From positions 5,932 to 69,931 of the forward strand of contig CAYVHS010000002.1 in assembly GCA_964451495.1 (NCBI GenBank): a stretch of DNA of 64,000 nucleotides, read 5' to 3'. The position numbers and the translations under genes were made by a program. A model generated the notes under the pieces. That model searched no databases and was not told the origin of the DNA. It worked only from the letters and a program-made list of their open reading frames with translations. Shown piece after piece: positions 12,091 through 64,000 of this stretch. Every line of letters starts with the position of its first letter. Position 1 is the stretch's first letter. This DNA is from an uncultured Bdellovibrionales bacterium. GTDB lineage: Bacteria; Patescibacteriota; Minisyncoccia; Moranbacterales; UBA1568.

Positions 12091-12234
12091 GATTTACCCC
12101 CTTTCGAAACATTAAAGTACGAATTCGCATCATACAAATAACGGTACTCTTTGTCAAGAGCGCTTTGAAAATACGCCCTTTACCCTCCCTCTGGCCTATC
12201 TGCCCCCAGGGAACTCGCAGACATGCATCCCCTG

Positions 12235-14547: not shown

Positions 14548-14772
14548 CTTCTAAAATTTCAAAATCCAAATGAAAAATTTCATATTATAACCCAAGTATC
14601 AAAAACCAAAAAATAACTCTTAATTTTAGAATTTGGAATGTGAACTGGGACATTTGTTTCAAGTATACCCCATTCTGAGCCAAAAGAAAAAGAGGCTATG
14701 TATTCACACAACCTCCCGTAAAAAACAACAAGAAATGCTCGGCGCCCAGAGTGATCACCTCTTCGGGTAACC

Positions 14773-15456
14773 CTAATTCTTCACGGCGCCGCTAGCATGA
14801 TGCGGGACAGCAAAGGGACTCGAATAAACACCGCCAAGCTGACTCATCACTGTCTCATACAGTCCTTCACTCATCTTGCGATATGTTTCGACGGTCTCAC
14901 TGTGATCAAAGGAGATGAGTCGTATCTCCTCATCAGTGAAAGCACCGTATGCTATCGCATAACCCAAAGCTTGAGGGGAACGAGAACAATCAACGTCATT
15001 GTGTGGAGAACGACGATGCCACTCAAATATCTCCTTTCCGTTCCGACATATGGCCTCATGCACGGCCTCGGCGATAGCGTTGTGTTCGATATAGTTGTAC
15101 TGGATAATCCATTGGATTAATACAGCATCCTGCTTATCACCAAATACATTCTGTGTATCGCCTATGAGTACCGCCCTTTCCCCATACAGCCTTAAGCTCG
15201 TCCGAATATGAACAAGCATTGACTCCTTAAGTGCAGACCCAGACGACTTAGTGCTTTGTTTTACGTGCCCCTTCTTCCAAAGCCATTCGCAGAGTAATCC
15301 GACTACACTACCAGTGAGTCCTATGACAATCAACACAGACCACCGAGTACTCAAAAGACTGTCGGGAGATGGATACTTACTCCCAATAATGCGTGCCACT
15401 ACCAGCCCCAGAGCGATGACACAAAGAATACCCCATATTCGACCTATCTTATTCAT
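14773..15456 (-). CDS. hypothetical membrane-anchored protein (two N-terminal TM helices)
   Basis: 227 aa; TM segments at the N-terminus. No family recognised. Confidence 0.4.
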   Translation of the reverse strand: MNKIGRIWGILCVIALGLVVARIIGSKYPSPDSLLSTRWSVLIVIGLTGSVVGLLCEWLWKKGHVKQSTKSSGSALKESMLVHIRTSLRLYGERAVLIGDTQNVFGDKQDAVLIQWIIQYNYIEHNAIAEAVHEAICRNGKEIFEWHRRSPHNDVDCSRSPQALGYAIAYGAFTDEEIRLISFDHSETVETYRKMSEGLYETVMSQLGGVYSSPFAVPHHASGAVKN

Positions 15457-15584
15457 TTCCTATTCCTCCAGATTGTTAAAGAAAACACCAGCAGTATAGG
15501 ATAACGATCAAGATCTTGTCAAAAGAAAAAGGTGCGCCAAAGCATGAGCGCACCCCTGTCCAGTATTCTGGCACCTATTCACTT

Positions 15585-15719
15585 CCCCACCCTTTTCGAC
15601 TTATTTTGCCACTCCTCCCAGAGATCACATACAAATGGGACCAAAAACGTCGCAACAAGCAACGCTCCAATGACAATCTTGACAGCGATATCCGCAAAAC
15701 CTCTTTCAGCATCCATTTC
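15585..15719 (-). CDS. possible small (44 aa) membrane protein, below the ORF-track cutoff
   Basis: ATG preceded by a strong Shine-Dalgarno (AAGGAGAG, 5-nt spacing). Product MDAERGFADIAVKIVIGALLVATFLVPFVCDLWEEWQNKSKRVG has one clear TM helix. Confidence 0.3.
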
Positions 15720-15771
15720 ACTCTCCTTGCAAGGTATAAGAATTTTCAAAAAGAACCTGCGTCACATGACT

Positions 15772-16467
15772 CTACCACCCTTTTTTGAGCAACCCCTTCT
15801 TCGCGGCTTCACGCTGAGCCTCTTGTTTAGATGCTCCCTCCCCCTCTGCGACCAATTCATCACCGAGATACACTCCTGCAATAAAATGACGGTCATGATC
15901 TGGTCCCCATTCCCTAAGCACACGATAGCTCGGTGTGATACCCACTTTATCCTGTGAAAACTCTTGGAAAAGGCTCTTGGGGTCTGTATGGAGTCCCTGC
16001 TCGAGCACTTCTTGCAGATGACTCATGACATTTTTTTGTATAAAAGCTTCCGCTGCATCATATCCTTGATCGAGATAAAGCGCCCCGATGATTGCCTCGA
16101 CAGCATTGGCTACGAGGTATCCACGAGCACGCCCTGTATCCTTGGCCTCTCCTCGACTCATGAGCAAAAAATCCTGGATACCCAAGCTCTGCCCAATAAC
16201 GCCGAGCATATCGCCGTTCACCAACGCGGCGCGAAAACTCGTCAGGTCGCCCTCTGGATTTTCAAAGGTATTGAAAAGATGTTTTGTTACAGCGAGTTCA
16301 AGCACTGCATCTCCCAAAAACTCGAGGCGTTCATTGTGTGGATGCCCGTACTCCTTGTGCTCATTAAGATAGGACCGATGCGTCAGTGCTTCCTGAAACA
16401 AATCAGCATTCCTGATCTCAATCCCGAGCTTTTCCTTCAATTGTGCTACATCCACCGTGCCTTCCAT
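15772..16467 (-). CDS. rnc: ribonuclease III (start taken at MEGTVDVAQLK; the longer ORF to 16611 overlaps nusB)
   Basis: RNase III signature ERLEFLGDAVLELAV, catalytic-domain layout and a C-terminal dsRBD with a KK-rich tail. Confidence 0.85.
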   Translation of the reverse strand: MEGTVDVAQLKEKLGIEIRNADLFQEALTHRSYLNEHKEYGHPHNERLEFLGDAVLELAVTKHLFNTFENPEGDLTSFRAALVNGDMLGVIGQSLGIQDFLLMSRGEAKDTGRARGYLVANAVEAIIGALYLDQGYDAAEAFIQKNVMSHLQEVLEQGLHTDPKSLFQEFSQDKVGITPSYRVLREWGPDHDRHFIAGVYLGDELVAEGEGASKQEAQREAAKKGLLKKGW

Positions 16468-16507
16468 AGAATCATTTTTATACAAAAAAGCGCTCTTCCG
16501 CGCTCTT

Positions 16508-17044
16508 TTATGTTGTCTTCTTGGGGGAAACTTTCGTGATTTTTTTCTCTTTTTCTGCTTTTTCTTTCTGTTCCTGCTTCTCGAGATTACGCGTATGATT
16601 CTCTGATACATCGTCTTTCATAGGCTCCCCCATTTCGCGGTAAATCGTTCCCAGTACACCGTTTACAAATCGTGGACTCGCGTCACTACCGAACGTCTTG
16701 GCTAATTCAATAGCCTCATTGATAGCTACTTTTGGTGGCACTTCATCATAATCCCCAAACATGAGTTCATAAATGCCCAATCGCAAAACATTACGATCCA
16801 CGACGGTCACTTGTTCTAGCGGCCACTCAGGAGCACATTTTTCAATCAATGTGTCGATTGTTTTTCGTTCACGCAAAGTCCCCTCCATCAGATGTTCGGC
16901 AAATATCGAGTCTTCCAGTCCAGGAGCGAATTCGGTGATATTTCGTTTCAGAACATCGCGAGATTCATCATCTTTCTGGCCACGAAAATCCCACTCGAAG
17001 AGTGACTGCATTGCTACTGATCTTTGAAGATGCCTGTTTGCCAT
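16508..17044 (-). CDS. nusB: transcription antitermination factor NusB (with Lys/Glu-rich C-terminal tail)
   Basis: …[49 protein letters not shown]… is a canonical NusB core. Confidence 0.85.
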
Positions 17045-51341: not shown

Positions 51342-52082
51342 ATGGCGTTCTCACAAAAACTGGCCAACCTCTTACGATCTGGCACAAAACATCTTCTCGA
51401 TATCGTATTCCCCATTTTTTGTCTGGGCTGTGAACAGCCTGAGGAGTGGCTCTGCGCCAATTGTCGATCCAGAATCCCTCTACTCGAAGAGCACCGTTGC
51501 CCCCGCTGCTACCACCATATCACCCCGTTTGGCTGCACCTGTATCGCCTGTTCGGAGCACTCTTCCCTCGATGGCGTCTTTGTAGCGAGTCACTACAAAA
51601 TCCCCGTTCTGGCACGAGCTATTCACAGCTATAAATATCGTTTCGTATCAGATCTAGCCGAGCCCCTCGGTCTTTTCCTCGCAGACGCTCTCCGCCGCAC
51701 CGATCTCCCCCTGCCGGATTTCATCATCCCCGTACCGCTTCATCCCAGACGTCTCCGCTTCCGCGGCTTCAATCAGTCCGAACTCCTTGCAAGGGTCCTC
51801 GCACAGCATATCGCTCCCGGCATAGATATTTCCGTGCTCGGACATACACTCATGCGCACCCGCTATACGAGACCACAAATGAAGGCGCATTCACGCAAAG
51901 AACGTCTCGGTAATCTGAAAGGGGCATTCGCTCTCGACAAAAAAACAAGAAAAATACTCCAGGGAACTACGCTCTGGCTCGTCGATGATGTCGCTACTAC
52001 TGGTACCACACTCGAAGAATGCGCCAAAATCCTCAAAAAGGCTGGGGCTCGCCACGTATTTGGCATCGTCCTGGCTCGCTAA
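51342..52082 (+). CDS. comFC: ComF family protein (ComFC; phosphoribosyltransferase domain with N-terminal Zn ribbon)
   Basis: CLGCEQ…CANC…CPRC…CTCIAC N-terminus and the PRT motif LVDDVATTGTT. Confidence 0.8.
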   Translation: MAFSQKLANLLRSGTKHLLDIVFPIFCLGCEQPEEWLCANCRSRIPLLEEHRCPRCYHHITPFGCTCIACSEHSSLDGVFVASHYKIPVLARAIHSYKYRFVSDLAEPLGLFLADALRRTDLPLPDFIIPVPLHPRRLRFRGFNQSELLARVLAQHIAPGIDISVLGHTLMRTRYTRPQMKAHSRKERLGNLKGAFALDKKTRKILQGTTLWLVDDVATTGTTLEECAKILKKAGARHVFGIVLAR

Positions 52083-52122
52083 AGCCACACCCAAAGCAAC
52101 TCGCTAGTCTGCTCAAAAAAGG

Positions 52123-52144
52123 ATTACGTAACTGATTACGTAAT
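52123..52144. repeat. hairpin ATTACGTAA-CTGA-TTACGTAAT between convergent comFC and DUF1295 genes (copy 2 of repeated palindromic motif)
   Basis: 9-bp perfect stem. Shares the core TACGTAAC[C/T]GATTACGTA with 25025..25044. Confidence 0.6.
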
Positions 52145-52170
52145 TCTTTTCTTAACATGTATTGCCAAAC

Positions 52171-52938
52171 TTATTTTCTCGGTGGTAACGGGAAAAACAT
52201 ACTGACCCTTCTTTGATATTCTGCAAATTGAGGATTTTCTGCCATCTTCTTTTCTAGGAGCGGGACTCCAGATACTTTCAAAATGAGAAAAGTTATCGTT
52301 AACGGGCCGATAATCCCATACAGACCATTGGGCACAGACAAAGCGACCAGAGAAAGCCCCCACCACTGCGTGACCTCTCCGAAATAATTGGGGTGGCGAC
52401 TATAGGCCCACAGTCCGCTTTGCATCAACTTTCCTTTGTTCTGTGGGTTTGCCATAAACCGTGCCAGTTGGGCATCTCCCACTGCTTCGAAATAAAACCC
52501 ACAGAGCCACACCATGATGCCGATTGCGTCACCGATACCCAGTACTATCCCCCGACTCGCATTAATCACCACCACCGGTAGCACCACGAGATAGAGCAGT
52601 GCCCCCTGGAGCAGATACACCTGTACATAGGAACGAGGATAAAACCACGCGCCCCACTCCTTACGCCACGCCAAATACCGATAATCCTCCGTCCTGCCCT
52701 TATTACGAGCATGGATATGCGCTGCCAAGCGCATGCCCCAGATACTCACCAGGATACAAACGACTAAGCCTCGCGTACCAGCATCCCCCCACAAGAAAAA
52801 GGATGTCCATGCCATCAGAACAAATCCGAGTCCCCACGCCACATCGGCCACATCATTTCTCTTTTTCATCCAAGAAACCACGAACCACAGACTCATGTAT
52901 ACAAACAATACCGCACCAAGGGTGACGTAATGATTCAT
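52171..52938 (-). CDS. DUF1295 / steroid-5-alpha-reductase–ICMT-like membrane protein
   Basis: C-terminal LWAYSRHPNYFGE motif; about 6 TM helices. Confidence 0.7.
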   Translation of the reverse strand: MNHYVTLGAVLFVYMSLWFVVSWMKKRNDVADVAWGLGFVLMAWTSFFLWGDAGTRGLVVCILVSIWGMRLAAHIHARNKGRTEDYRYLAWRKEWGAWFYPRSYVQVYLLQGALLYLVVLPVVVINASRGIVLGIGDAIGIMVWLCGFYFEAVGDAQLARFMANPQNKGKLMQSGLWAYSRHPNYFGEVTQWWGLSLVALSVPNGLYGIIGPLTITFLILKVSGVPLLEKKMAENPQFAEYQRRVSMFFPLPPRK

Positions 52939-53333
52939 AGACTGATTTTAGTGGCGATGAAGTACGTCACGACCGAAACAGTGGCCCCGAGTATACTCCC
53001 CCATGCCATATCGACCAAGGTGACGAGGATTGGCCAATCCTTAAGCGTCGCCAAATTCGTCAGGTCATACGTGGCATACGTGATAAGCCCAAAGAACGCC
53101 CCGATACCAAGCGCGTACACCCATGAACCTTTTTCCACCGCCGGAGCAATGACGAAAAATACGAGCCCAACAAGAAATAAGAGATAAAACGCAATCGCAG
53201 CGACCCAGCTGATGTCACTCTTCATCAAAGAGCCTATTTGCCCTCGATAGAAATTTTTGGCCACGAGACCCAACCAGATCATATCGATAGCAAAGAAAAC
53301 CGGAAGTGCAATAGCGTACAATTTTATAAACAT
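52935..53333 (-). CDS. DUF2177 family membrane protein (start at MFIKLYAIALP; the ORF extends to 53390)
   Basis: …VAKNFYR…ITYATYDLTNLATLKDWP… is characteristic of DUF2177. Confidence 0.6.
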   Translation of the reverse strand: MFIKLYAIALPVFFAIDMIWLGLVAKNFYRGQIGSLMKSDISWVAAIAFYLLFLVGLVFFVIAPAVEKGSWVYALGIGAFFGLITYATYDLTNLATLKDWPILVTLVDMAWGSILGATVSVVTYFIATKISL

Positions 53334-53404
53334 ACAAATTTTGATTACATAATTCACATACCATCCTGCTTCAATAGAATACCACGACATGCTATCCTTA
53401 GCAT

Positions 53405-53974
53405 ATGCTGAACAAAAAACTCTTAATCAATACACTGTGTGAATTTGGACCCATCATTGGCTTTCTGGTTGCTTTTGAGCTGAGAGACTTCATGACCGGA
53501 GTAATCGTCATGATGATAGCAACACTTCTCTCATTGGCTATCTTACGGCATCTAGAGGGGCATACACCCATTTTTGCACTTCTTTCGTCTAGCTCAGTGC
53601 TCTTTTTCGGTGGTATTTCACTCTTTATCCACATTCCGAGTATATTCATTCTGAGAGACACGCTATTTGATGGTATTTTCGGATTAGCCCTCATCATTTC
53701 TGTCTGGATCGGGAAACCACTCTTTAAATACATATTTAGTGGAGTATTCGCCATTACCGATACCGGCTGGAGTACTCTCAGTCTACGCTGGGGTATTTTC
53801 TTCATTATCCTCGCCCTCATCAATGAATGGGTACGCCTCACACTTTCCCCCGAAGATTGGGTGGTCGCGAAAATCCTGATAATAATCGTCTCGGCAGTAT
53901 TTGGCACCTATCAACTCAAGCTGACTCGCGCAGAGCGACTGCCTCATGCGACCTCTTGGGGCATCGTCACGTAA
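53405..53974 (+). CDS. intracellular septation protein A family (YciB/IspZ-like) membrane protein
   Basis: Aligns with the YciB core (…ISLFIHIPSIFILRDTLFDGIFGLALIISVWIGKPL…LSLRWGIFFIILALINEW…). Chosen over the antisense ORF 53398..53907. Confidence 0.65.
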   Translation: MLNKKLLINTLCEFGPIIGFLVAFELRDFMTGVIVMMIATLLSLAILRHLEGHTPIFALLSSSSVLFFGGISLFIHIPSIFILRDTLFDGIFGLALIISVWIGKPLFKYIFSGVFAITDTGWSTLSLRWGIFFIILALINEWVRLTLSPEDWVVAKILIIIVSAVFGTYQLKLTRAERLPHATSWGIVT

Positions 53975-54021
53975 AGCCTCTGTAGAACAGGTAATATCTT
54001 TTCGGGGCGTACCTGAGCAAC

Positions 54022-54432
54022 CTATTGTGTTAAATCTTCGAGAGATTTCAGTGGTTTCAATTCATACAGGTAGTACACCCCTACAACGACCGCAAAAGCG
54101 ATAGCGCAATAAATCATCTCGAGCGCCAAGATATCAGGGTATAGCATTTTTCGCGCAATAATAAGGAGCATGAGCTCCATGACTACGACAATACTATGCA
54201 CCAGGATGAGACGCGCCACTTCAAGCCCTAAAAGAACGAGGAGGACAGTCGTAATAAAATCGTACATAGTGGTGACACTCGACCAGTCTCTCTCTAAAAA
54301 ATCACCCAGCGCCACTACACTGAAATACACAACCCCGCAAAATACCAGTATCGTCAAAACTATCTCGGCCACATGCAAAAGAACATCTTCTCCTCGCACT
54401 ATATTTGCGATGAGTTTTCGTAGAGTTTGCAT
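54022..54432 (-). CDS. psiE: phosphate-starvation-inducible PsiE family membrane protein
   Basis: 136 aa, 4 TM helices, PsiE-like sequence pattern. Confidence 0.6.
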   Translation of the reverse strand: MQTLRKLIANIVRGEDVLLHVAEIVLTILVFCGVVYFSVVALGDFLERDWSSVTTMYDFITTVLLVLLGLEVARLILVHSIVVVMELMLLIIARKMLYPDILALEMIYCAIAFAVVVGVYYLYELKPLKSLEDLTQ

Positions 54433-54438
54433 AGCTGA

Positions 54439-54843
54439 TTATCGATTTAAGTAAGTTATCGTCAGCTGCAAACCAGTGGCAAAAGTACCCCAGAGAAGAT
54501 ACGGGGTATTGGCATAGACCACCCAGCGTAAATCTGGTGACGCATACCAAATAGCGTACAGCGCCCACACGAGAGTACCGACGACCAGGAGAATATCAAT
54601 GGAAGCGAGCAGGTTATTCTTCAGCCCAAATTGTATCGGCGTGAAGGCAAAATTGAAAAGCAGGTTGAGAGCAAATGGCAATGCCACAATCCATGCGATT
54701 CTACCCGTGAATGCCCTATAAAACACGGTACCGAAAGAGACCGCGATAATCATGTACAGCACTGTCCACACCGGACCAAAGAGCCAGCTCGGTGGCGCCC
54801 AGAAGGGTTTGATAAATTCTGTATACTGCGTTGGCTCGTTCAT
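54439..54843 (-). CDS. tspO: TspO/MBR (tryptophan-rich sensory protein) family
   Basis: …WLFGPVWTVLY…, five TM helices; Trp/aromatic-rich. Confidence 0.75.
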   Translation of the reverse strand: MNEPTQYTEFIKPFWAPPSWLFGPVWTVLYMIIAVSFGTVFYRAFTGRIAWIVALPFALNLLFNFAFTPIQFGLKNNLLASIDILLVVGTLVWALYAIWYASPDLRWVVYANTPYLLWGTFATGLQLTITYLNR

Positions 54844-54930
54844 AATAGCTACTCATGTTTTATATACTTAACACCTCTCTGTATTGCCAAACAATATACG
54901 CTTCGAGACCCGACCACATCAAAAGTGAGA

Positions 54931-55305
54931 TTATTTTTTCGTCTGTTCTTCCTTCACTCGGAACCGCACTATTTTCCGAATCAATCCCCAAGGCAGATCC
55001 TTGCCCAGCGGAAACTGAATAGTGCCCTTGGAGGTCCGATAGGCTGATAATTCTTTCTCAAACACTCGAATCCCCGATGCGCCAGGATACAAACCAATAT
55101 GTTTCTGATATGCTGCAAAATGCACCACATTTCGCCCACCTAGACGCAGAGTCGGGATGCCATACCGGATAGCTTCTTCGGCCCCAGGAACCACAGCATG
55201 AATCGTCTGCCTGAGTCTTTCCAGTATCTTTCTCGTCTCTTCTGGAAAGGTATCGATATATTCGTCGATGTCTTTGTAGGTTTTCATACCCTCACTATCA
55301 ATCAA
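54931..55305 (-). CDS. DUF1801 (YdhG-like) domain protein
   Basis: 124 aa (…YKDIDEYIDTFPEETRKILERLRQTIHAVVPGAEEAIRYGIPT…). Confidence 0.65.
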   Translation of the reverse strand: MIDSEGMKTYKDIDEYIDTFPEETRKILERLRQTIHAVVPGAEEAIRYGIPTLRLGGRNVVHFAAYQKHIGLYPGASGIRVFEKELSAYRTSKGTIQFPLGKDLPWGLIRKIVRFRVKEEQTKK

Positions 55306-55327: not shown

Positions 55328-55789
55328 TTATTGAGTCAATAATGCTGCTATATCAATTTTCTTCATATTGAGTAACTTGCTCCATGCCCCTGGCGTTTTC
55401 ATTATCTCTTCGATATTTTCAGGATTGATCTGCCACGACAAGCCATATTTATCTTTGCACCAGCCACACACGCTTTCAGCACCTCCATCTATCGTCAGCT
55501 TTTCCCAATAGTAATCAATCTCCGATTGATCTTTGCAAGCAATATTAAACGACACAGCCTCATTAAACGTAAATTCATTCCCAGCATTAATAGCCACAAA
55601 TTCCTGACCCATCAGCTCAAAGGAGATGGCAAGTACTTTACCAGCAAACGGCTCTTGAAAATCGAGCAATCCTTCTGTTGGATAATATGAGGTGGTAATA
55701 ATTTTTCCGTCCCTAAAAACAGATAGATAAAAATTAACCGCTTCTTCCGCGTTCCCTTTAAACCACAAATTTGGTGTTATTTTTTGCAT
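55328..55789 (-). CDS. VOC/glyoxalase-fold protein (PhnB-like)
   Basis: MQKITPNLWFKGNAEEAVNFY… is the typical start of the PhnB/3-demethylubiquinone-methyltransferase-like VOC family. Confidence 0.7.
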   Translation of the reverse strand: MQKITPNLWFKGNAEEAVNFYLSVFRDGKIITTSYYPTEGLLDFQEPFAGKVLAISFELMGQEFVAINAGNEFTFNEAVSFNIACKDQSEIDYYWEKLTIDGGAESVCGWCKDKYGLSWQINPENIEEIMKTPGAWSKLLNMKKIDIAALLTQ

Positions 55790-55842
55790 AGGTAGATGAT
55801 GAATGAACTAATAAATCGAACGTCACAATAGTTTCTATCCTC

Positions 55843-55920
55843 ACTATAAACCAAAAATCCCCCAGATACAATCTGGAGGATTTTTCACTGCGGAGTACCT
55901 GGAACGAAGTTAGAGCTTAC
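55843..55920. repeat. att-like repeat B: degenerate copy of the tRNA-Ser 3' end plus its downstream terminator hairpin
   Basis: ACTATAAACCAAAAATCCCCCAGATACAATCTGGAGGATTTTTCAC+TGCGGAGTACCTGGAACGAAGTTAGAGCTTAC. It aligns with 63021..63100 (copy A) and, for the second half, with 57533..57577 (copy C). Confidence 0.6.
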
Positions 55921-56481
55921 TTATATTTTTATCTTGCTCAATTGAAGTAATTTTGTTGTGGTATTCCAATTACGGATGGTCATAGATTTATAAAGAGGCG
56001 AAGTCATAATTTTATTTAATCTACTTTTGGTACGTTCGGAACTAAGACGCTGAGAATAAATCACTCCATCGCCTTGCCAGACTTTGTCGACCCCATCTTT
56101 AGGGCTAAATTCAGACATTGCCATGCTCGAACTAATACCCATCAGAAAAATAACATCGCTGTGGTATTTTTCTGGATGCATACCAAAACCTTTTGGCTTA
56201 TTACCAATAACTGCTTTGAGTTGATCATGAGTCAATACTAAAACTTTAATAACTTCACTATCAAGTTTGAAATCCTTAGGAAGAATCTTTTCAATCCGTT
56301 CTCTTATTTTATCAGGACTCATAGTAGACTTCACAATCACATTGCCACTAGCAATATATGTTGAAACATCGGAAAACCCATGCTTTTCCAAGCATTTCCT
56401 TAATTCGGTCATCGGGACTTTGTTTTTTCCACCAACATTTATTCCACGCAATAATATGACAAAAGTTTCCATAATTTTCAT
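55921..56481 (-). CDS. DUF1697 family protein
   Basis: VILLRGINVGGKNKVPM… is the DUF1697 signature N-terminus. Confidence 0.75.
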   Translation of the reverse strand: MKIMETFVILLRGINVGGKNKVPMTELRKCLEKHGFSDVSTYIASGNVIVKSTMSPDKIRERIEKILPKDFKLDSEVIKVLVLTHDQLKAVIGNKPKGFGMHPEKYHSDVIFLMGISSSMAMSEFSPKDGVDKVWQGDGVIYSQRLSSERTKSRLNKIMTSPLYKSMTIRNWNTTTKLLQLSKIKI

Positions 56482-56662
56482 TATACCTTACTAAGAATCG
56501 TTAGCGGGCTACCTCGGTCTAGAACCCATAATTTATCAATCCGTTGGGGAATGTCTCAGGAGTTCAGAGCGCAAGAGGAATTGAGGTGTCTCAATCGTAA
56601 TCTTAAAAAAGGATAGTGAGACAATTGATCAGCGAAACGGGCACCGTCTTATTTTTAAGCTA

Positions 56663-57466
56663 CTACTGATGAATGGGCACGAGTTTGAGGCGCCGGTTCC
56701 CTCCATCCGCTAGAAAAAGAGTTTGCAATATAGCATGTACATCCTTTATTGCCTGTCCCGAGCAGGCCTCAGTCTTGAGTTTAAAAATTCGCTGGCCAGT
56801 AAAGAAAACTGTATTTTCGACTTCGCAAGAAGCATTGGTATAGTAACGAACCGCGGAATACCAATTCACTTTTGTGTTCTGAACTCCAGCTTGAGTGATG
56901 TTCACACCTTCTCGTGCTTCCACCCACGCAGTAAGATTTGTTACCTCTTGAGCTTGTGGGATAATTTCCATGGTAATTGTTGAAGTTATGGCAGATGTCT
57001 CTTTTTCAGTCAGTACCAGCGTGGCATTGTTTCGATCAAAAATACTTTCCTTGAGATTGTAAGCTTTGGGATAACTGAAATCAAGATCCAGGAGCTGGTT
57101 CTCATACTTTTCACCAAATTGACTTAAACCCTGGCTGCGATCTGTAGGCAGGATTGGGTGTTCTTCGAGAGCGAAAAATGGAGGATGAAAGACAAGACTG
57201 TAGAGAAAGAATCCCGCAAGATTCACAGTTAAAAATCCAAAGAGGATGATATAACCCTTCCGGATTTTTCTGATAACCAGATTTCCAGAAGGAGCTTTGA
57301 TTAATAGAGCTAAGAGGCTCAAAAGAAGAGTACCGCCAAGGAGAAGGACGAGGCACCAGGAGAGAAAACGAAAGGTTATATCATAGATGCTGACAGAGGG
57401 AAGCGTAGCCTGAACAGAAAATGGAACAAGCAGCAAAAAAATTACGAAAATTAGTATTCTCCTCAT
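56663..57466 (-). CDS. hypothetical membrane protein (signal peptide plus 2–3 TM helices, extracytoplasmic C-terminal domain)
   Basis: 267 aa; no family recognised; AT-rich. Confidence 0.4.
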   Translation of the reverse strand: MRRILIFVIFLLLVPFSVQATLPSVSIYDITFRFLSWCLVLLLGGTLLLSLLALLIKAPSGNLVIRKIRKGYIILFGFLTVNLAGFFLYSLVFHPPFFALEEHPILPTDRSQGLSQFGEKYENQLLDLDFSYPKAYNLKESIFDRNNATLVLTEKETSAITSTITMEIIPQAQEVTNLTAWVEAREGVNITQAGVQNTKVNWYSAVRYYTNASCEVENTVFFTGQRIFKLKTEACSGQAIKDVHAILQTLFLADGGNRRLKLVPIHQ

Positions 57467-57532
57467 ATTTGTAATTTAACACAAAAAACCACAAAGTTTA
57501 ACACCTTTTTAAGGTCTCAGGTCATCCTCGAT

Positions 57533-57577
57533 ACTATGAGCTTAATGCGGAGAGCCTGGGACGAAGTTAGAACTTAT
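57533..57577. repeat. att-like repeat C (tRNA-3'-end-like fragment without hairpin)
   Basis: ACTATGAGCTTAATGCGGAGAGCCTGGGACGAAGTTAGAACTTAT. Its core differs at only 3 positions from the corresponding part of repeat B. Confidence 0.5.
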
Positions 57578-57734
57578 ATGGTAAGCCTAGTATAGCCCAT
57601 TCGTGATTCAAACCCTACTTATCTCTAGTCCCGATTTAGCTTGTTCCAAACCAAGAAATATGGATTGCGTTAGAGCGAAAGCAAATCTATGTATACTTGT
57701 CCCGCCCACCCAGTGTGTGCACAAGCGGACCCCC

Positions 57735-58823
57735 CTATATTTTTTTTCCTACATATCTTTCAATTCCATCAATCTTCAAATCCTCATCACAGACAATCCC
57801 AACACTATAACTCGCTCTTGTTATTGCGACATAAAATTTTGATCGACTTGTAGGTGCCAGCTCTGAGTTATTATTTTTTATCCATGAAATAAATTGCGGT
57901 GTCGGGTACATAAGAGTTCTTTCAAATTCTAGTCCTTTTGATAAACCAAATGTTAAAACTCTATAATTCTCGTTGATTACCGTCCTTGAATCCCAACGCA
58001 ATTGTATCGGTTTATATTCAGAAAGATAATTTGCAATATCTTGTGTATTTACAAAAAACACTCCGTCATGTCCCGTGCTGTTTGTATTCCCAGAGGTTGT
58101 TTTTTTCAAATCTGGGTACAGTTTATTTGATAAATCGCAGATAGGTGAACAACTACGATAATTAGTTGTTAGGGAATTATCATCCTTTTCAATCGTGATT
58201 GAGGCATCCTCAAAAAAATTGATGATTTTTGTTTTCTTAAATTTTTTATTTTTTGATGAATTATTTGTTGAATATGTACCTTGTCGCGGATCGCCAACTA
58301 ACAAAATATTTGTTTTGCAATCAAAAAGAAGTTTTAAAAAATCTAGATCATACCCTGCCAAATCCTGTATTTCATCTATGAATATATCCGTGTAAATTCT
58401 TGATAGCCTATCAACCACAGAACCATTGCTTTGTTCGTTACATTTAACAACAAATTTTGAAAGTTTATCAGAGTAGATTTTTTGATTTTTTGTAAAATAA
58501 TGATTCTGTGTATCTATTTCTGCTACACCTTTTGCAGATATCCCATTGATTAGAACTAAACCATTTATATCATCATTAAATTTACACCCCTGAAATGGTC
58601 GCGCGCCATGCTGTAATAAAAAAGAAAACCATGTTTGAATAGTTACATTTTCTGGAACACATCTATTGATTTTTATAAACTTCCTTCTAATTTCTTCCTC
58701 GTTTGCCTGTGTGTATGTAGTAATAAGTATTCTCCCATTTTTCTTCTTTAACGCCTCATTTACAAGAAAAGTGGTTTTTCCCGATCCTGCGGCGGCGATG
58801 ATCAATTTATTATTACCGCACAT
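57735..58823 (-). CDS. compact UvrD/PcrA-like SF1 helicase (GajB-like partner of OLD-family nuclease)
   Basis: Walker A AAGSGKTT, DEIQD (motif II), GDPRQ (III), YRS (IV), YVAITRA (VI). The start codon is 1 nt after the GajA-like stop (TAAtATG). Confidence 0.7.
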   Translation of the reverse strand: MCGNNKLIIAAAGSGKTTFLVNEALKKKNGRILITTYTQANEEEIRRKFIKINRCVPENVTIQTWFSFLLQHGARPFQGCKFNDDINGLVLINGISAKGVAEIDTQNHYFTKNQKIYSDKLSKFVVKCNEQSNGSVVDRLSRIYTDIFIDEIQDLAGYDLDFLKLLFDCKTNILLVGDPRQGTYSTNNSSKNKKFKKTKIINFFEDASITIEKDDNSLTTNYRSCSPICDLSNKLYPDLKKTTSGNTNSTGHDGVFFVNTQDIANYLSEYKPIQLRWDSRTVINENYRVLTFGLSKGLEFERTLMYPTPQFISWIKNNNSELAPTSRSKFYVAITRASYSVGIVCDEDLKIDGIERYVGKKI

Positions 58824-58824
58824 A

Positions 58825-60474
58825 TTATTTTATGGCATCCAAAATATATTGCGGAAAGTTAACTGTTTCTGCTGTATCAAAAATTTTCAATGCACAATCT
58901 GTTTTATTTACTTTCATGTATTTATGCAAATCGTCTACGTTGGTGTAAGTTGTACCGAAGATTTTATTGAAAGATTCAAGACTGTTCATTTTTAATAACT
59001 TTGGTTCAAGCGTATTGTAGTTAAATTTTTTCCCGTCAACCTCAAGAGTCCCCGTATCAACAGTCTCGTCAAAGCAAATTTTTATAAAATCCTTGGCATT
59101 TTCTCCTAAATAATCATCATACTTACTCTTTACAGCTTCGGGGCTCCCATCATTGTCAGTTGCTACAATAAGGGGCTTCTTGATTTTCTTGGCAATCTCT
59201 AAAAATCTTAAAAATGATGTTCCAACCGAAATAACATCTACACCATTTTCAATCGGCAATTTGTCACTGTTATTCACCATAAATGCTTTTTGGATAATTA
59301 GTTCATCCGAATCGCCCTCAACTAAAATTGCTTTCTGGCAAAGAATAAGGCGCAAAGTGTCATATCCTGGTAATCTTTCAAAAAAACTTCTAGTACCCTC
59401 TTGTAAGTCATCGAGCTTTACTGTTTCGTTATTGTTTAGCAAGATTAAACTTTTCAATCCAAGTTTATTTGCGACAAAACTACTATGTGTAGAAATAATT
59501 ATCTGCTTGTTATTATCTTCGCTCTTTATCCCATGAATGAGTTGATTGAGTTTTGTGTGCGATAGATGATTTTCTGGTTCTTCAAGAAGTAGAATATTAG
59601 CCTCTCGAGATTTACTATGACTCAAAGCTAAATTTGTTTTTACGATACACTGTTCTCCTTTTCCTATGTGATGAAAAGGGACATTGTCAAAATAAGTCAT
59701 TAAGCTGCTTTCCCACGCATTTTTTGATGATAGATCAACGGACAACTTAACATCCTTATTTGAAATTTTTGTTGCAGTTTTTATTTTAGAATTTATATTC
59801 TGTATTGCTTTATCATCCATGAAAAAATCTCTCATCTTTCTATGAGCCTGCGAAATACTAACAACATCTTCTGGTTCTAAAAAGTCTTTAACGATCCTTG
59901 AAATATAAATATCGGATCCGTTTTGATAACGATTACTTGAAGAATCAATCAGGGCAGATTTGATTGGGATACTTCGTGCGGTAATATTCTCGCGTGCACA
60001 AGAAGCCCAAAATACATCATAATATTCAATGGGAATAGTTTTAATATTTCCGCCTTTTATAAATTCTTCATATTCTCCTTGATATTTTTCATCAAAGGCA
60101 ATCTTTAAGGATATTCCGCATTCTTTTTTGCCATCGCTATTACTGTCGCCTTCAAATTTTGCCAAGTCATCACCGACTACAAAAATCTCAATCAAAATAT
60201 GTGGCAATGTAGCAGGTTCGCCTTTATCTAACTTTTCGACATATTCAGCAACAATCTCGTTGTTAAATAAATATTGCGTTAATTCATTTTTTAAGTACCG
60301 ACCATTGAACAAACCCGACAAAACCAGATGTATTGATTCAAGTATCGTAGATTTTCCCGCTTCGTTATTGCCAACCAAAATATTAAGCCCCTCATTTAAT
60401 TTCAGGTTAAACTTGCCCTTAAAGCATTTAAAATTTTCAATATTTATTTCCTTGATATACATTTTGCTTGCCAT
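58825..60474 (-). CDS. OLD-family ATP-dependent endonuclease (ABC-type ATPase + TOPRIM), GajA-like
   Basis: Walker A GNNEAGKST; ABC signature/Walker B (ILLLEEPENHL…STHS); C-terminal TOPRIM with ILVEGDSDE and VATDNDG. Confidence 0.75.
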   Translation of the reverse strand: MASKMYIKEINIENFKCFKGKFNLKLNEGLNILVGNNEAGKSTILESIHLVLSGLFNGRYLKNELTQYLFNNEIVAEYVEKLDKGEPATLPHILIEIFVVGDDLAKFEGDSNSDGKKECGISLKIAFDEKYQGEYEEFIKGGNIKTIPIEYYDVFWASCARENITARSIPIKSALIDSSSNRYQNGSDIYISRIVKDFLEPEDVVSISQAHRKMRDFFMDDKAIQNINSKIKTATKISNKDVKLSVDLSSKNAWESSLMTYFDNVPFHHIGKGEQCIVKTNLALSHSKSREANILLLEEPENHLSHTKLNQLIHGIKSEDNNKQIIISTHSSFVANKLGLKSLILLNNNETVKLDDLQEGTRSFFERLPGYDTLRLILCQKAILVEGDSDELIIQKAFMVNNSDKLPIENGVDVISVGTSFLRFLEIAKKIKKPLIVATDNDGSPEAVKSKYDDYLGENAKDFIKICFDETVDTGTLEVDGKKFNYNTLEPKLLKMNSLESFNKIFGTTYTNVDDLHKYMKVNKTDCALKIFDTAETVNFPQYILDAIK

Positions 60475-60477
60475 ATT

Positions 60478-61581
60478 TTATTTCCCAGACTTAGTCCGGT
60501 TATCTTGTTTGCAAAGCATTTGGCAGTTGTCCGCAATTGTCTTGCCGCCTTCATGCCAAGGGGTGATGTGATCGGCTTCCATTTCTTCTATTGCAAAACG
60601 CTCTCCGCATTTTGTGCAGATTCCTTTCTGTCTTTCGTACGCCTCGCGCTTCATCTTTTCATTGAAAGCGCGTATTGAGAGATGCCTTTCTTGTCCTGTG
60701 AGCAAAAATGGATAGATGCCGGATTTCTTCGTTACATCATCATCCTGCATCAACTTCGAAACTTCGGCTTCTAGCTTCTTAGCGTCTAGTTTTTTGTCTT
60801 TGAATTGATTATATAGTTCGCCCCAATTCACATTCGCCATTTCTTTGCGGTGATCAGGAAACGCGTTGCGCACCCACACTATAACATTTTGGAAATACTC
60901 CCACAATTCGTTAGCATTTTTGTCGTGCTGATGCTTCGCCATGTAGTCTGCCACTTCGCCGTTATTTATCCATGAAAGCGCAGTTTCCAAGTATTCTTGC
61001 CGGATCGGCGAGCCGGTGAGCAATGCGCCGCCATCATTTGCCAAAAGGTATGCAGCGCAATTTGATTTACTGAATTTAAGTTTCGCGTCTGAAAGCCATG
61101 GTCCGGTATAAACGGCATTACGCAATTCTTGATCCGTTAGTTTTTCACCTGCGATGTTGATAATCTTAAACCAGTCCAGCTTTTCCTTGTCTGTTCCTTC
61201 GCAGAAATAAACCATCAGCTCATAATCGAGGATCTTATCCTGTTCTTCTTTGGTAAGATTATGAAACATTGCCAGACGACCATTGAAATCTACTGAAAAG
61301 TCACCATTTACATACTGGCCAATACTAATCGTTCTTTGTTGTCCATCGAGTACCTCGAAATTATCTTGGTCTGTTTTTACCCAGTACATCACGTTAAGCG
61401 GGAAACTTTTCTTCACCGTATCAATAACCGCATCACGCTGCTTTTCCTTGTAGACGAATTCGCGCTGATACTTCGGACGAACATCAAGCCTGCCTCCATA
61501 AGCCACAACGCCTTCTTCAGCACTGTCTTTGTAGCCGTCTATCACTTCGCGTACTTTGATTTTATGCAGGTCGATTTTCAT
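60478..61581 (-). CDS. DUF262 (ParB-like nuclease/NTPase domain) + C-terminal HNH endonuclease, GmrSD/BrxU-like type IV restriction-type protein
   Basis: DUF262 DGQQR motif (VLDGQQRTISI). C-terminal HNH (CTKCGER…EADHITPWHEGGKTIADNCQMLCKQDN). Confidence 0.7.
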   Translation of the reverse strand: MKIDLHKIKVREVIDGYKDSAEEGVVAYGGRLDVRPKYQREFVYKEKQRDAVIDTVKKSFPLNVMYWVKTDQDNFEVLDGQQRTISIGQYVNGDFSVDFNGRLAMFHNLTKEEQDKILDYELMVYFCEGTDKEKLDWFKIINIAGEKLTDQELRNAVYTGPWLSDAKLKFSKSNCAAYLLANDGGALLTGSPIRQEYLETALSWINNGEVADYMAKHQHDKNANELWEYFQNVIVWVRNAFPDHRKEMANVNWGELYNQFKDKKLDAKKLEAEVSKLMQDDDVTKKSGIYPFLLTGQERHLSIRAFNEKMKREAYERQKGICTKCGERFAIEEMEADHITPWHEGGKTIADNCQMLCKQDNRTKSGK

Positions 61582-61582
61582 A

Positions 61583-62680
61583 TTATTTCTTTAAGCTTTT
61601 GTTTTTAATAAGAACTCGTGCGTAAGTTTCTTTATTATTAATTGTGAATCGTCTACCGTAATTGGGGTTACCTTCTACGTACCTATCAATACCAATAATT
61701 TCAAATTGACTTGGACTATATTTATCCAAAAATGTGATTGGGACTCCCATCACCCCAGGATAATCCATAGGAATATCGCTCACTTTATTAACATTTATTG
61801 CGTTGTATGTATCGTAATTTGGATATTCTTCTTTAGAATATTTTTTATATAACGTAATTTCTTGGTGTCGTTTGGTTGTGTCTAAATTTGTAAACCAAAC
61901 AATTCTGCCCATACTAAAATACTGGATTCCATTTTCAATTTTTTTCCTTGATTCTGTAGGAATATCATAATCATCAGGAACCTGAAACCATTTTGTCCCC
62001 CCATTATCGTAACCGAGCCACAATTTATCTTCCTTTATCAATTTAAAAGTTTCTTTATAGGTTATTGCATTTTGATCACCGAGAATTAAGAATTTTTTAC
62101 CGTATTCAACAAGCTGAGCAACATACTCACGAAATAACGAAAAGGGTGGATTTGTTACAACTATATCAGCTTGCTTTAGTAACTCTATGCTTTCCTCGTT
62201 TCTAAAGTCTCCTTCACCTTTAAGTGGTAGCCATTCGTTGTTTTTGTTAGCCTTGAGCTGTTCAGCTATATCACGCAGATCAAATGCACCGTCACCGTCT
62301 ATATCATCAACCTCGTTGATGATGAATTTGTTAGCCGTTATTTTTGGGCGACCTTTTGGTTCTGCTGACCGTCTCACAACCTTATCTTCATAACCAAGAA
62401 GAAGGGACGGCTGCAATACAAGTTCTGTATTGGCAATAGGAGACGGTTTGTAGCTAGTGGCAATAAGCTTCTTTAATCCAAGTTCTTTAAAGTTGCTAGC
62501 AAAGTATTTAAAAAAGTTGCTTTCAAACGGATCATCGCAATTGCAATACACAACTTTGCCGCGAAACTGACTTTTATAGTGTTTCAGCTCCTTTTCAATA
62601 TCAACAAGCTGAGTATAAAACTCATCTTTTTTTGCTTTGTTGGCTTTGTGTAGATTGCTATTTAATGATTCCTTTCCCAT
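61583..62680 (-). CDS. N6-adenine DNA methyltransferase (EcoRI-methylase-like family)
   Basis: N-terminal KDEFYTQ, catalytic motif IV VVTNPPFS, about 365 aa. The family assignment is from motif memory. Confidence 0.65.
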   Translation of the reverse strand: MGKESLNSNLHKANKAKKDEFYTQLVDIEKELKHYKSQFRGKVVYCNCDDPFESNFFKYFASNFKELGLKKLIATSYKPSPIANTELVLQPSLLLGYEDKVVRRSAEPKGRPKITANKFIINEVDDIDGDGAFDLRDIAEQLKANKNNEWLPLKGEGDFRNEESIELLKQADIVVTNPPFSLFREYVAQLVEYGKKFLILGDQNAITYKETFKLIKEDKLWLGYDNGGTKWFQVPDDYDIPTESRKKIENGIQYFSMGRIVWFTNLDTTKRHQEITLYKKYSKEEYPNYDTYNAINVNKVSDIPMDYPGVMGVPITFLDKYSPSQFEIIGIDRYVEGNPNYGRRFTINNKETYARVLIKNKSLKK

Positions 62681-62846
62681 AATTTTTTCTATTCAAACCA
62701 TCAGTAAGAGCTGAGACAAAATCAACCCAGCTATCCAACCAAAGATCAGTTTCTTCAAGGCTTACTTTACATTTACAAAGCTTTTCAAAATATTGCTGAC
62801 CTCTCTTCAGCAACTCTTCAGAAAACATGTACTTTTGACGCTCCAT
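62658..62846 (-). CDS. small hypothetical ORF (62 aa) overlapping the methyltransferase start by 23 nt
   Basis: ATG is 3 nt after the stop of the upstream HTH-fragment ORF. No family recognised. Confidence 0.25.
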   Translation of the reverse strand: MERQKYMFSEELLKRGQQYFEKLCKCKVSLEETDLWLDSWVDFVSALTDGLNRKNYGKGIIK

Positions 62847-62848
62847 AC

Positions 62849-62968
62849 TTACTTCACAAAGTATTCGATACTTTTACCGTAGAGCTGAGCAAATCTTTTC
62901 ACTTCTAGAATATCTAGTCGATATTCTCCTGATTCAACTCGTGAAATATAAGATTGCGGTCGCTTCAT
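62849..62968 (-). pseudogene. XRE-type helix-turn-helix fragment (helices 2–3 and tail only), probably a truncated regulator
   Basis: …(GLESELRQIDVAEK)MKRPQSYISRVESGEYRLDILEVKRFAQLYGKSIEYFVK*. The in-frame sequence continues upstream into the tRNA terminator to a TAG at 63029..63031, with no upstream ATG other than the one at 62968. Confidence 0.35.
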
Positions 62969-63028
62969 CTTTTCGGCAACATCAATCTGCCTGAGCTCTG
63001 ATTCTAGCCCATACCCCCCTACTATAGA

Positions 63029-63060
63029 CTAAAAATCCCCCAGGTACAATCTGAGGGATT
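63029..63060 (-). terminator. intrinsic terminator of tRNA-Ser (also forms the att-like repeat A)
   Basis: On the minus strand: AAUCCCUCAG-AUUGUAC-CUGGGGGAUU followed by UUUUUAG, beginning 7 nt after the tRNA 3' end. Confidence 0.65.
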
Positions 63061-63067
63061 CAATTTG

Positions 63068-63154
63068 CGGAAAGGGAGAGATTCGAACTCTCGGAGGTTT
63101 TTACGCCTCGGCACGTTAGCAGTGTGCTGGTTTAAGCCGCTCACCCACCTTTCC
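63068..63154 (-). tRNA. tRNA-Ser (anticodon GCU), class II with long variable arm; CCA not encoded
   Basis: Manual fold: acceptor GGAAAGG/CCTTTCC, T-arm GAGAG-TTCGAAT-CTCTC, anticodon loop CUGCUAA, a 3-bp D-stem and a long variable arm. Total 87 nt. Confidence 0.8.
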
Positions 63155-63168: not shown

Positions 63169-64000
63169 TTAAGCCATTTTATATCTTTTCTCGTGCTTCG
63201 GATTATGAGTTCCAACCACTTGAAAATATTTCTCTACATCTTTTTTGGCTTCAATCCGTATATCCCAACCATTTTTCATTATGCGATGCTTTATACCTAA
63301 AATCAAGAGGGTCCCGCTTGCTGACTTTATAAGCGGGTATGATCGGCTTGTAATGCCGACCTTCTTGTATTGGTATCTTTTCCCATTCGAAAGATACTGA
63401 TGAAGTATAATACAGCCGTCAGTATCAATCAAGCCGCGCAAACAAGCGATAGAATAAGATCTATCTTCTTTCACCCACATTGGGAAATCGACTTGTTGCT
63501 TCACCTTATTCCCCGATTTCATTCCTACAACATTTATCAGATAAGAAACCAGTCCTATCCTAGAAACCACAATCCGTTTAGCTAGAGATCTTTTATCACG
63601 ATAAACACCTACGGGAGCATCAAAAAGCTTTCTAGTTAGTTTTTCGACAAATTTCAAATATTCTTTATCAGTCTCACTGTTAAGTGTCACAGTAAACTGA
63701 CGTTCGCTCATTCCTCCATCGCCAAGCATAATTCCGACAAACTCAGCCAGGTCTTTTGAAAATTTAGGCTTCTTAAACGGAAGCGCTTGAATCATTTTTG
63801 ATGGTTTGAATTTCCCTTCTCTCTCCCACCACTCGTGCCACTTCTTTTTCCGATACTCCGGATCGCCGCCGACACTGCCATATTTCTCGACAGTCGCCCT
63901 ACCACCTGCACGAGCACCTTTCGAGACATACCAATAAGCATCTCTGGTACCGATATCTGTCGGTACAGGAATGTTTCTTTTTTCGCAAATTCGTTCGACA
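63169..64000 (-). CDS. LAGLIDADG homing-endonuclease-domain protein; N-terminus beyond window end
   Basis: Two LAGLIDADG motifs (GIMLGDGGM and LRGLIDTDGCI). The reading frame stays open upstream of the annotated Met through position 64000 (…YGSVGGDPEYRKKKWHEWWEREGKFKPSKMIQ…). Confidence 0.6.
   Translation of the reverse strand, partial: VERICEKRNIPVPTDIGTRDAYWYVSKGARAGGRATVEKYGSVGGDPEYRKKKWHEWWEREGKFKPSKMIQALPFKKPKFSKDLAEFVGIMLGDGGMSERQFTVTLNSETDKEYLKFVEKLTRKLFDAPVGVYRDKRSLAKRIVVSRIGLVSYLINVVGMKSGNKVKQQVDFPMWVKEDRSYSIACLRGLIDTDGCIILHQYLSNGKRYQYKKVGITSRSYPLIKSASGTLLILGIKHRIMKNGWDIRIEAKKDVEKYFQVVGTHNPKHEKRYKMA

Follow-up and report, generated by a model that had tools for sequence, protein, structure and literature searches.

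Probable stack of recombinase-less derivatives of small integrative elements at the tRNA-Ser(GCU) gene of a Moranbacterales genome

Integrative elements at tRNA genes have been described in several forms, and the locus analysed here resembles more than one of them. It lies in a 64,000-nucleotide (nt) stretch (hereafter the window) of contig CAYVHS010000002.1, from an uncultured bacterium placed in the Moranbacterales (Patescibacteriota), and consists of tRNA-Ser(GCU) and the AT-rich DNA just 3' of it, where repeats of the tRNA end stand among defence and other genes. Cis-mobilizable elements (CIMEs) are non-autonomous elements, flanked by attachment (att) sites, that form by accretion with integrative and conjugative or integrative and mobilizable elements, and the P2/P4 hotspots are defence-cargo hotspots inside mobile elements. 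Like CIMEs, the units described below keep both ends, have lost their recombination and replication modules and lie in tandem at the same site; they differ in having no conjugation functions, and their mobilization in trans is putative. The tRNA-gene islands of Islander/TIGER (PMC4383910) share with the locus an intact tRNA that marks one boundary and whose 3' end is repeated at the opposite boundary, a foreign composition and accessory or defence cargo. Unlike those islands, the intact relatives of these units appear to use a large serine recombinase, the crossover would fall at the last bases of the tRNA and its trailer with 7-9 nt of the tRNA repeated, and the copies in the window are recombinase-less. 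Especially close are the tycheposons of Prochlorococcus, in which new arrivals at a tRNA push older elements inward, leaving degenerate elements and partial-tRNA scars, and in which 910 of the 937 integrase-carrying elements have tyrosine recombinases and the remainder carry a large serine recombinase (10.1101/2020.12.28.424599). Both are small elements that combine a replication gene with cargo and stack at one tRNA, whereas here the host is a member of the Patescibacteria, the replication gene is of the rolling-circle type and there is a single cargo slot, next to an XRE regulator gene, dominated by anti-phage systems. We found no description of this element family in the literature that could be searched.

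The region is probably a stack of decayed, recombinase-less derivatives of small integrative elements that insert at the tRNA-Ser 3' end in Moranbacteria. This reading is carried by the anatomy and boundaries of the region, by its homology to intact elements, by one pair of occupied and empty sites in relatives and by its foreign base composition. An initial annotation, made from the sequence alone, had already attributed the region to elements that target a tRNA 3' end, and this is borne out by intact, recombinase-bearing relatives (L131, L132 and L134/L135) at the same tRNA with the same 31-nt end. Judging from its domains, the recombinase of these relatives is a large serine recombinase and not the usual tyrosine integrase.

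Anatomy of the tRNA-Ser(GCU) locus

The features of the locus are given below from the tRNA outward, where psiT is the label given here to a 31-nt motif and J_A, J_B, J_C and J_D are labels for junctions. All the listed genes of the region lie on the minus strand, which is the direction of the tRNA.

63067-63154, minus: tRNA-Ser(GCU), intact, the target gene (ARAGORN; Rfam RF00005, 48.3 bits)
63015-63073, minus: J_B, tRNA-proximal junction, attL-like: tRNA 3' end, core CCGCA, bidirectional terminator hairpin (63033-63061), GTCTATAGT
62850-63019, minus: XRE regulator remnant, residues 22-73 of a 73-amino-acid (aa) protein (Pfam HTH_3, 3.7e-8)
62658-62846, minus: open reading frame (ORF) of 62 aa, function unknown, first cargo gene (ORF list)
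61583-62680, minus: type II adenine methyltransferase, EcoRI-methylase family, cargo (PF13651, 1.9e-136; PADLOC MTase_II, 7.9e-122)
60478-61581, minus: type II restriction enzyme, GmrSD_N/DUF262 and HNH, cargo (PF03235, PF01844; PADLOC REase_II, 2.5e-145)
58825-60474, minus: GajA, ATPase and OLD-type TOPRIM nuclease, cargo (PADLOC GajA, 5.5e-222; PF13175, PF20469)
57735-58823, minus: GajB, short UvrD-like helicase, cargo (PADLOC GajB, 3.6e-136)
57504-57576, minus: J_C, attR-like junction: psiT (57546-57576) ending in core CCGCA (57546-57550), then the flank TTAAGCTCATAGTATCGAGGATGACC
56663-57466, minus: membrane protein of 267 aa, function unknown, no family (ORF list)
56503-56526, minus: J_D, weaker scar of a second type, GGTTCTAGACCGAGGTAGCCCGC, resembling L010 site 1
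55921-56481, minus: DUF1697 gene (PF08002, 9.8e-37)
55837-55919, minus: J_A, distal junction: psiT (55889-55919), core CCGCA, second hairpin arm (hairpin 55853-55885, TATAGTGAGGATAGA)
55328-55789, minus: VOC/PF06983 gene (Pfam), GC 0.387
52100-52145, no strand: TTACGTAA repeats beside the 3' end of comF (comF at 51342-52082); the same motif lies by comF in L137

tRNA-Ser(GCU) is the one tRNA gene that ARAGORN and Rfam find in the window, and the putative crossover core, CCGCA, is its 3' end. A module of 53-59 nt, which combines the tRNA's last 7-9 nt with a terminator hairpin and TATAGT, is present in two copies, at 63015-63073 and 55837-55895. CTCCGCA and the 46 nt downstream recur at 55837-55895, and CTCTCCGCA is found at 57546-57554. 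The second hairpin copy that had been reported near 55843 is real: the segment of hairpin plus ACTATARAC is 88% identical over 40 nt between 55843-55882 and 63021-63060, and the hairpin core pattern has two matches in 64 kb where shuffles predict none. The stem at 63033-63061 folds at -15.6 kcal/mol; the distal copy (centroid stem 55853-55885) has a minimum free energy of -20.5 kcal/mol and is also scored as terminator-like on both strands. A candidate promoter in the module, TTGTAT-17-TATAGT, fails the promoter-scan criteria. The third, hairpin-less copy of the repeat, placed by the initial annotation at 57533-57577, is equally real. Its psiT (57546-57576) is 87% identical to that at 55889-55919, and the psiT pattern again has two matches in 64 kb against none expected from shuffles.

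The AT-richness of the region is confirmed by its base composition. GC is 0.363 in the 5.5-kb unit (57546-63066) and 0.349 in the DUF1697 unit, compared to 0.460 in the rest of the window, where no span of 5.5 kb falls below 0.435. An independent Logan contig from SRR12487046, a run of the source sample, crosses the distal junction at 100% identity, and no alternative junction is present among the Logan contigs of that run, where assemblies break at psiT. Contig L141 of the same run, for instance, ends at about position 57548 of the window, exactly at psiT, which is consistent with psiT being repeated in the source genome. Public short-read assemblies will usually fragment such islands.

Between the hairpin arm and the first psiT lies the insertion of about 5.5 kb with a defence operon that had been proposed, and it is indeed an element derivative carrying a restriction-modification pair and Gabija. 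The arm (63015-63066) and psiT (57546-57576) flank a unit that keeps both att ends and has lost its recombinase, as a CIME does. Next to the arm, the XRE gene has lost its 5' end and promoter; what is left has 92% aa identity to residues 22-73 of the XRE protein of L131, and, with an in-frame TAG at 63029-63031, at most a 39-codon ORF remains (ATG at 62964-62966). Two other accounts of this remnant, a frameshift and an internal deletion between TAGAA repeats, are ruled out by the family of 73-aa proteins and by the alignment with L137, which give a 5' truncation fused to the hairpin arm. One MAFFT alignment hinted at an XRE 5' remnant beyond J_A, and the L137 alignment does not support it. The 62-aa ORF is without a Pfam or PADLOC match. 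The methyltransferase and the endonuclease adjoin and form a type II restriction-modification system by PADLOC, and GajA and GajB, with 1 nt between them, form a Gabija system; 160 nt of non-coding DNA then separate GajB from psiT. The earlier statement that no integrase is present holds as well, since tblastn of the window with the relatives' proteins, the serine recombinase and a tyrosine integrase among them, returned only the XRE remnant and an antisense-tRNA artefact.

Beyond the core of the 5.5-kb unit come the TTAAGCTCATAGTATCGAGG flank and the membrane-protein gene. J_D sits between the genes for the membrane protein and DUF1697. Among the new matches of a profile built without it, it scores best (nhmmer E=0.018), and its local alignment with L010 site 1 has p=0.0015. 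The stop codon of the DUF1697 gene is 1 nt from psiT, and the second hairpin arm (55837-55888) stops after GAGGATAGA. J_A therefore reads as an element end fused to an element beginning, an attP-like arrangement. The initial annotation had proposed two successive insertions, one of them of about 1.7 kb with the DUF1697 and membrane-protein genes. Stacked units with scars are present, and so is the 1.7-kb unit, but that unit is composite, with a third, weaker scar (56503-56526) inside it; the window holds at least three scars, J_A joins an end to a beginning, and a history of two insertions is not established. Past J_A, the VOC gene may be cargo of an older element.

Intact elements, truncated derivatives and an empty site in relatives

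The XRE remnant belongs to a family of 73-aa proteins, 80-96% identical, on hundreds of Patescibacteria contigs, many of them named Moranbacteria. Intact elements of 6-7 kb sit at the tRNA-Ser 3' end in L131 (Logan DRR350540), L132 (the complete Moraniibacteriota genome CP065011.1) and L134/L135. Starting from the tRNA, they carry on the opposite strand genes for a large serine recombinase, a rolling-circle initiator (Rep, REP_ORF2-G2P), a protein of unknown function and a DUF2726 protein (no DUF2726 gene is called in L134/L135), followed on the strand of the tRNA by the 73-aa XRE gene, a variable block and psiT as the distal end. The distance from XRE to tRNA-Ser is 4-4.5 kb in all of them. 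The recombinase has Resolvase and Recombinase domains and a weak zinc-ribbon match (in L134, PF00239 at 4.5e-19, PF07508 at 8e-18 and PF13408 at 2.6e-4); in L132 its gene is intact, though uncalled. The recombinase ORFs lie on the minus strand of the locus (L131 3813-5492, L134 253-1836, L132 5359-6894) and span the att core, their last ~35-70 codons being antisense to tRNA-Ser. The tail of the integrated form (...KADFLQM followed by RKGRDSNPRG...) is thus antisense to the tRNA, and the reconstructed circular form would end differently.

The proximal sequence just 3' of the tRNA, TCTGTRMAAAATCAG..., is conserved among L131, L132 and L134, and the two element ends share only TCCGC(A), at the tRNA discriminator and trailer. 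Because these are the sole bases common to both ends, the crossover would fall within TCCGC(A) and keep the tRNA intact. The cargo slot holds recognized defence genes in four of six elements (restriction-modification with Gabija, CBASS twice, and PDC-M68), where CBASS denotes cyclic-oligonucleotide-based anti-phage signalling systems; the remaining two carry proteins not recognized as defence. IMG/VR yielded no relatives of the recombinase, no recombination directionality factor was identified, and the element family has no conjugation functions anywhere. The inverted repeat upstream of XRE in the intact elements was considered as a homologue of the hairpin and rejected, the sequence being AT-rich and the identity too low.

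Several of these loci hold further features. True tRNA-Ser 3' fragments of 18 nt (e.g. AATCCCACTCTCTCCGCA) lie 100-200 nt past psiT in L132 (11840-11870) and L134 (6700-6735), scars that a second, different kind of element left at this tRNA. A tyrosine integrase gene is also present in L132, at 12137-12949, 460 nt past psiT, and downstream of it, in the same variable region, four paralogous ORFs of 82 aa with regular spacing (13093-16669). In L138 (8296-10330; also L139 and L140), a RhuM gene and a tRNA-Met/Met/Asp cluster precede a truncated copy of the same XRE, of 57 aa, and psiT comes less than 130 nt behind it; tRNA-Ser was not detected at this locus, which is a cargo-less remnant, possibly one whose target tRNA was lost.

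The consensus of psiT, AAGTTCTAACTTCGTCCCAGGCTCTCCGC, is common to both window copies and to L131, L132, L134/L135, L137 and L138-140. The motif is conserved in at least six other genomes; it ends the cargo in every intact case, and the DNA on its two sides varies by genome. J_C, for instance, is 93.5% identical over 46 nt to the attR of L131 and 97% over 33 nt to L137, with further matches in L132, L134/L135 and L138-140. The initial annotation had called the motif a stretch like the tRNA 3' end. This is correct only for the terminal 7-9 nt (CTCCGCA / CTCTCCGCA), which are demonstrably tRNA-derived; without the core, the rest of psiT has no significant similarity to the T-arm (p about 0.1 against shuffles). 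Both window copies share the same extra bases, so that independent decay of each from a functional tRNA end is excluded, and psiT is better read as the element's own half-site than as a decayed tRNA T-arm. Serine-integrase prophages and elements such as A118/LI, Bxb1 and phiC31 (PMC3783163) resemble the family in having a recombinase with Resolvase, Recombinase and zinc-ribbon domains and short att half-sites without arms; in serine-integrase sites, a zinc-ribbon motif lies 5 bp farther out in attP than in attB. In the tRNA, the T-loop-like motif AGTTCNAAYYTC begins 19 nt ahead of CCGCA, and in psiT this distance is 24 nt, an outward shift of 5 bp that matches the attP-attB difference and is suggestive only. 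At the distal end, conservation reaches only ~31 nt from the core before variable cargo directly adjoins, as in compact att sites of about 40-50 bp without arm sites, which would fit serine-integrase sites better than the long arms of a tyrosine-integrase attP. Unlike in those better-known systems, the target is a tRNA 3' end, the recombinase ORF crosses the core into the tRNA antisense strand and activity is predicted from sequence.

Truncated forms like that in the window recur in relatives. The hairpin pattern has a single match in 185,579 species genomes, in L009 (a Candidatus Moraniibacteriota metagenome-assembled genome, MAG), and none in IMG/VR or the JGI metagenome collection, in which the psiT pattern is likewise absent. 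In L009 the hairpin again lies 3' of tRNA-Ser(GCU) and is followed by a truncated XRE and then by a different gene, a CBASS-type cyclase. Over 53 nt, the junction next to its tRNA matches the distal module of the window (55843-55895) at 96% identity, TGCGGAG of the tRNA 3' end included. Compared with L137, a Moranbacteria MAG, J_A is 90% identical over 60 nt; the J_B arm has 94.6% identity with L009 (37 nt) and 90% with L137 (30 nt). The order in L137 is tRNA-Ser, core, the same hairpin, XRE fused at the same codon as in the window, a gene for a 519-aa ATPase, psiT, core and AAAATGGGAAATCGGAATGG; an ORF starting in the hairpin loop encodes a 66-aa chimeric XRE (P0149), a frame that the TAG at 63029-63031 interrupts in the window. 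The same recombinase-less derivative, with both ends retained, is therefore present in three genomes (the window, L009 and L137) with three different cargos.

An empty counterpart is found at locus L124, where AAAATTGAAAATCGGAATTGG directly follows the core and there is no hairpin, XRE or psiT. The L124 tRNA is 99% identical to those of L137 and L009, and L137 carries sequence matching AAAATTGAAAATCGGAATTGG straight after psiT and the core. L137 and L124 are thus an occupied/empty pair in which the 1.83-kb unit of L137 is an insertion with the hairpin as its left arm. By the same alignment, the arm belongs to the element. The description of the hairpin as the terminator of the tRNA is accordingly right in that a terminator hairpin folds at the site, but it is carried by the element (L137/L124) and is not simply native. 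The arm is 90-96% identical among the window, L009 and L137, while the window tRNA is only 85% identical to theirs, which suggests that the truncated form spread horizontally or else that the arm is strongly constrained. The motif that follows the core natively in L124 and L137 is not present in the window.

L124 came from a metagenome scan with a tRNA T-arm/acceptor pattern, which mostly returned unrelated tRNA-Ser genes; only L038, L083, L092 and L124 were relevant. Among the others, marine metagenome loci (L050, L051, L096, L109, L112 and more) carry several partial tRNA-Ser 3' ends, each followed by the same terminator, CTTTAATAGACGATAAACCCTGCATAAGCGGGG, and some fused to unrelated upstream sequence. 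Such copies resemble att scars that integrative elements would leave in a marine lineage unrelated to this one.

The surroundings of the stack can also be compared. PilM, ClpB and ComF are syntenic in the window, L137 and L124, and the TTACGTAA repeats by comF are common to the window and L137, so that the whole interval from comF to the tRNA is variable; it spans 10.9 kb in the window and 2.4 kb in L137. The repeats, a palindrome in two to three copies kept at 52100-52145 of the window and 4120-4165 of L137, are the conserved far boundary of this interval; they could act as a terminator or bind a protein. The GC of the genes at 52171-55305 is like that of the host, and no scars are recognizable among them. 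The VOC gene was tried as a synteny anchor for an empty site and abandoned, as its homologues (80-91% identical) have unrelated neighbourhoods. VOC/PF06983 homologues (L002-L008, on Patescibacteria-like contigs) are very numerous; their neighbours are often OmdA/DUF1801 or NUDIX genes and in one case an IS3 transposase, and the gene behaves like a mobile accessory gene. Directly upstream of tRNA-Ser, an ORF resembling LAGLIDADG-type homing endonucleases (63169-64000, minus, PF14528 at 1.1e-8, GC 0.41) runs out of the window.

Proposed history and competing explanations

In the proposed mechanism, the element would insert by site-specific recombination at CCGCA, the discriminator base and the start of the trailer, with the tRNA 3' end serving as attB and psiT-CCGCA-TCTGTAAAAAATCAG... 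as attP. With the crossover past the acceptor stem, insertion would spare the tRNA and place psiT and the core against the former downstream flank. A serine recombinase presumably acts on these sites, and truncated units would move only with a recombinase supplied in trans. In the 5.5-kb unit, the module of recombinase, Rep and DUF2726 would have been deleted together with the first ~20 XRE codons, leaving the short proximal arm, which is also a bidirectional terminator hairpin, fused directly to the XRE remnant. Excision of this unit would leave tRNA-core-TTAAGCTCATAG. Beyond it would lie older material, the membrane-protein and DUF1697 genes with a scar after each, the last scar being joined to the second hairpin arm. 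After insertion, recombinase and Rep would have been lost and several units stacked.

Several points weigh against this account. No recombinase lies within the window. L132 has a tyrosine integrase nearby, and true tRNA 3' fragments lie past psiT in L132 and L134. The membrane-protein and DUF1697 units have ends of a different type, and the resemblance to the T-loop on which the 5-bp shift is based lacks significance when taken alone (p about 0.1). The initial annotation had suggested comparison with an empty site, and the L137/L124 pair, with tRNAs 99% identical, provides one in relatives but not in the window's own lineage. Finally, canonical serine integrases normally recombine only attP with attB (PMC3783163), and because of this pairing rule tandem stacking, J_A above all, needs an extra step. 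J_A could have arisen by homologous, Campbell-type insertion through the 59-nt module, by insertion of a multimer, which would be plausible given the rolling-circle Rep of the family, by arrival of the entire 7.2 kb between the hairpin arms as a single composite, or by recombination outside the attP-attB rule.

The same difficulty lends some weight to an explanation in which the hairpin module was duplicated here by homologous or illegitimate recombination, either as a local duplication or through replacement of the island from a relative, and not by site-specific integration. A Campbell-type event via the 59-nt module would produce the end-to-beginning joint of J_A, which canonical attP x attB recombination does not make, and the conserved comF and tRNA flanks could support allelic replacement. 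Such a route accounts for no more than the stacking, since each unit itself has the two ends of a site-specific element, and L137 and L124 show a precise insertion at the core. As an account of the locus it is improbable, if the best placed of the alternatives.

Slightly less probable is the idea that the single-gene units (the membrane-protein and DUF1697 genes here, a membrane-protein and a HAD-like gene in L010) are cassettes moved one at a time at tRNA-Ser by a serine recombinase acting in trans, with ends of the form GGTTCTARAC..CGAG..GCCCGC, core, TYAAGCNCATNGTATCRAG, in an integron-like array on a tRNA gene. The membrane protein has only two homologues among 5.8 billion proteins. One is on L010, which is 92% identical to the window at the nucleotide level starting exactly at the core, and on that contig the same flank motif stands on both sides of the gene, with GGTTCTAAC...GCCCGC-like sequence ahead of each copy. 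The gene is thus bracketed by these ends in both genomes while its neighbours differ. Each unit is one gene with hardly any DNA to spare, as at the DUF1697 stop codon, all genes are co-oriented with the tRNA, and the VOC homologues recur in unrelated contexts. Against this, only two genomes are involved, and L010, a contig without a tRNA, may be the same locus inherited vertically, given its 92% identity; J_D is a weak match (E=0.018), the second end type has no linked recombinase, and neither circular nor empty forms were seen. Nor is an integron matched, as there is no integrase in the window and the junctions end in the tRNA core CCGCA and not in inverted-repeat attC sites, as judged without an attC model. 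Upstream of the first junction motif of L010 (1241-5674) lie an S24-peptidase repressor gene (LexA/CI-like) and five unknown genes, which may represent another element family that shares the site and has ends of the second type.

It is quite unlikely that the region is an ordinary tyrosine-integrase island in which the repeats are a displaced tRNA 3' fragment, the integrase gene is gone and the relatives' serine recombinase plays no part. Tyrosine integrases are the usual agents at tRNA genes (PMC4383910), and the integrase gene of L132 and the 18-nt fragments distal to psiT in L132 and L134 would fit such an origin. However, psiT shares only its 7-9 nt with the tRNA and is itself conserved across genomes, where it closes units that open with a serine recombinase gene; its ~31 nt of conservation with abutting cargo are unlike an arm-type attP, and the recombinase ORF crosses the core.

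That the hairpin is a generic terminator or intergenic repeat family unrelated to mobility can be set aside as very improbable: it has a good intrinsic-terminator shape with A and T runs on both sides, but its two copies in 64 kb both lie at junctions, it is always fused to the XRE remnant or psiT, and it is not a generic family, because its sole match in species genomes is again at tRNA-Ser(GCU) and the metagenome and viral collections have none, a check on unrelated loci that the initial annotation itself had proposed.

A defence-carrying element family in Patescibacteria

On the reading preferred here, the window is the decayed end state of an ordinary, familiar kind of island, a tRNA-anchored defence island with stacked att scars, in a little-studied group. 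It shares with the P2/P4 hotspots and with pipolins (PMC11551731) a fixed backbone with one slot in which anti-phage systems are swapped; the backbone is a different one, and the slot here lies between the XRE gene and a minimal att half-site. The interest of the locus lies mostly in the element family it indicates in Patescibacteria, and in the minority cassette reading. If true, the latter would amount to an integron-like gene-capture array on a tRNA gene, with a serine and not a tyrosine recombinase, in ultra-small Patescibacteria.

The Patescibacteria, or Candidate Phyla Radiation (CPR) group, have tiny genomes, and to our knowledge almost no mobile elements have been described in them. 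Together with its relatives, the locus defines a compact element family with a serine recombinase, a rolling-circle Rep, an XRE regulator and one cargo slot, through which a single tRNA gene receives Gabija, restriction-modification, CBASS and further anti-phage systems and which leaves stripped-down derivatives behind. It provides natural short att sites and a matching recombinase that are directly testable, and a concrete handle on how defence genes circulate in Patescibacteria.

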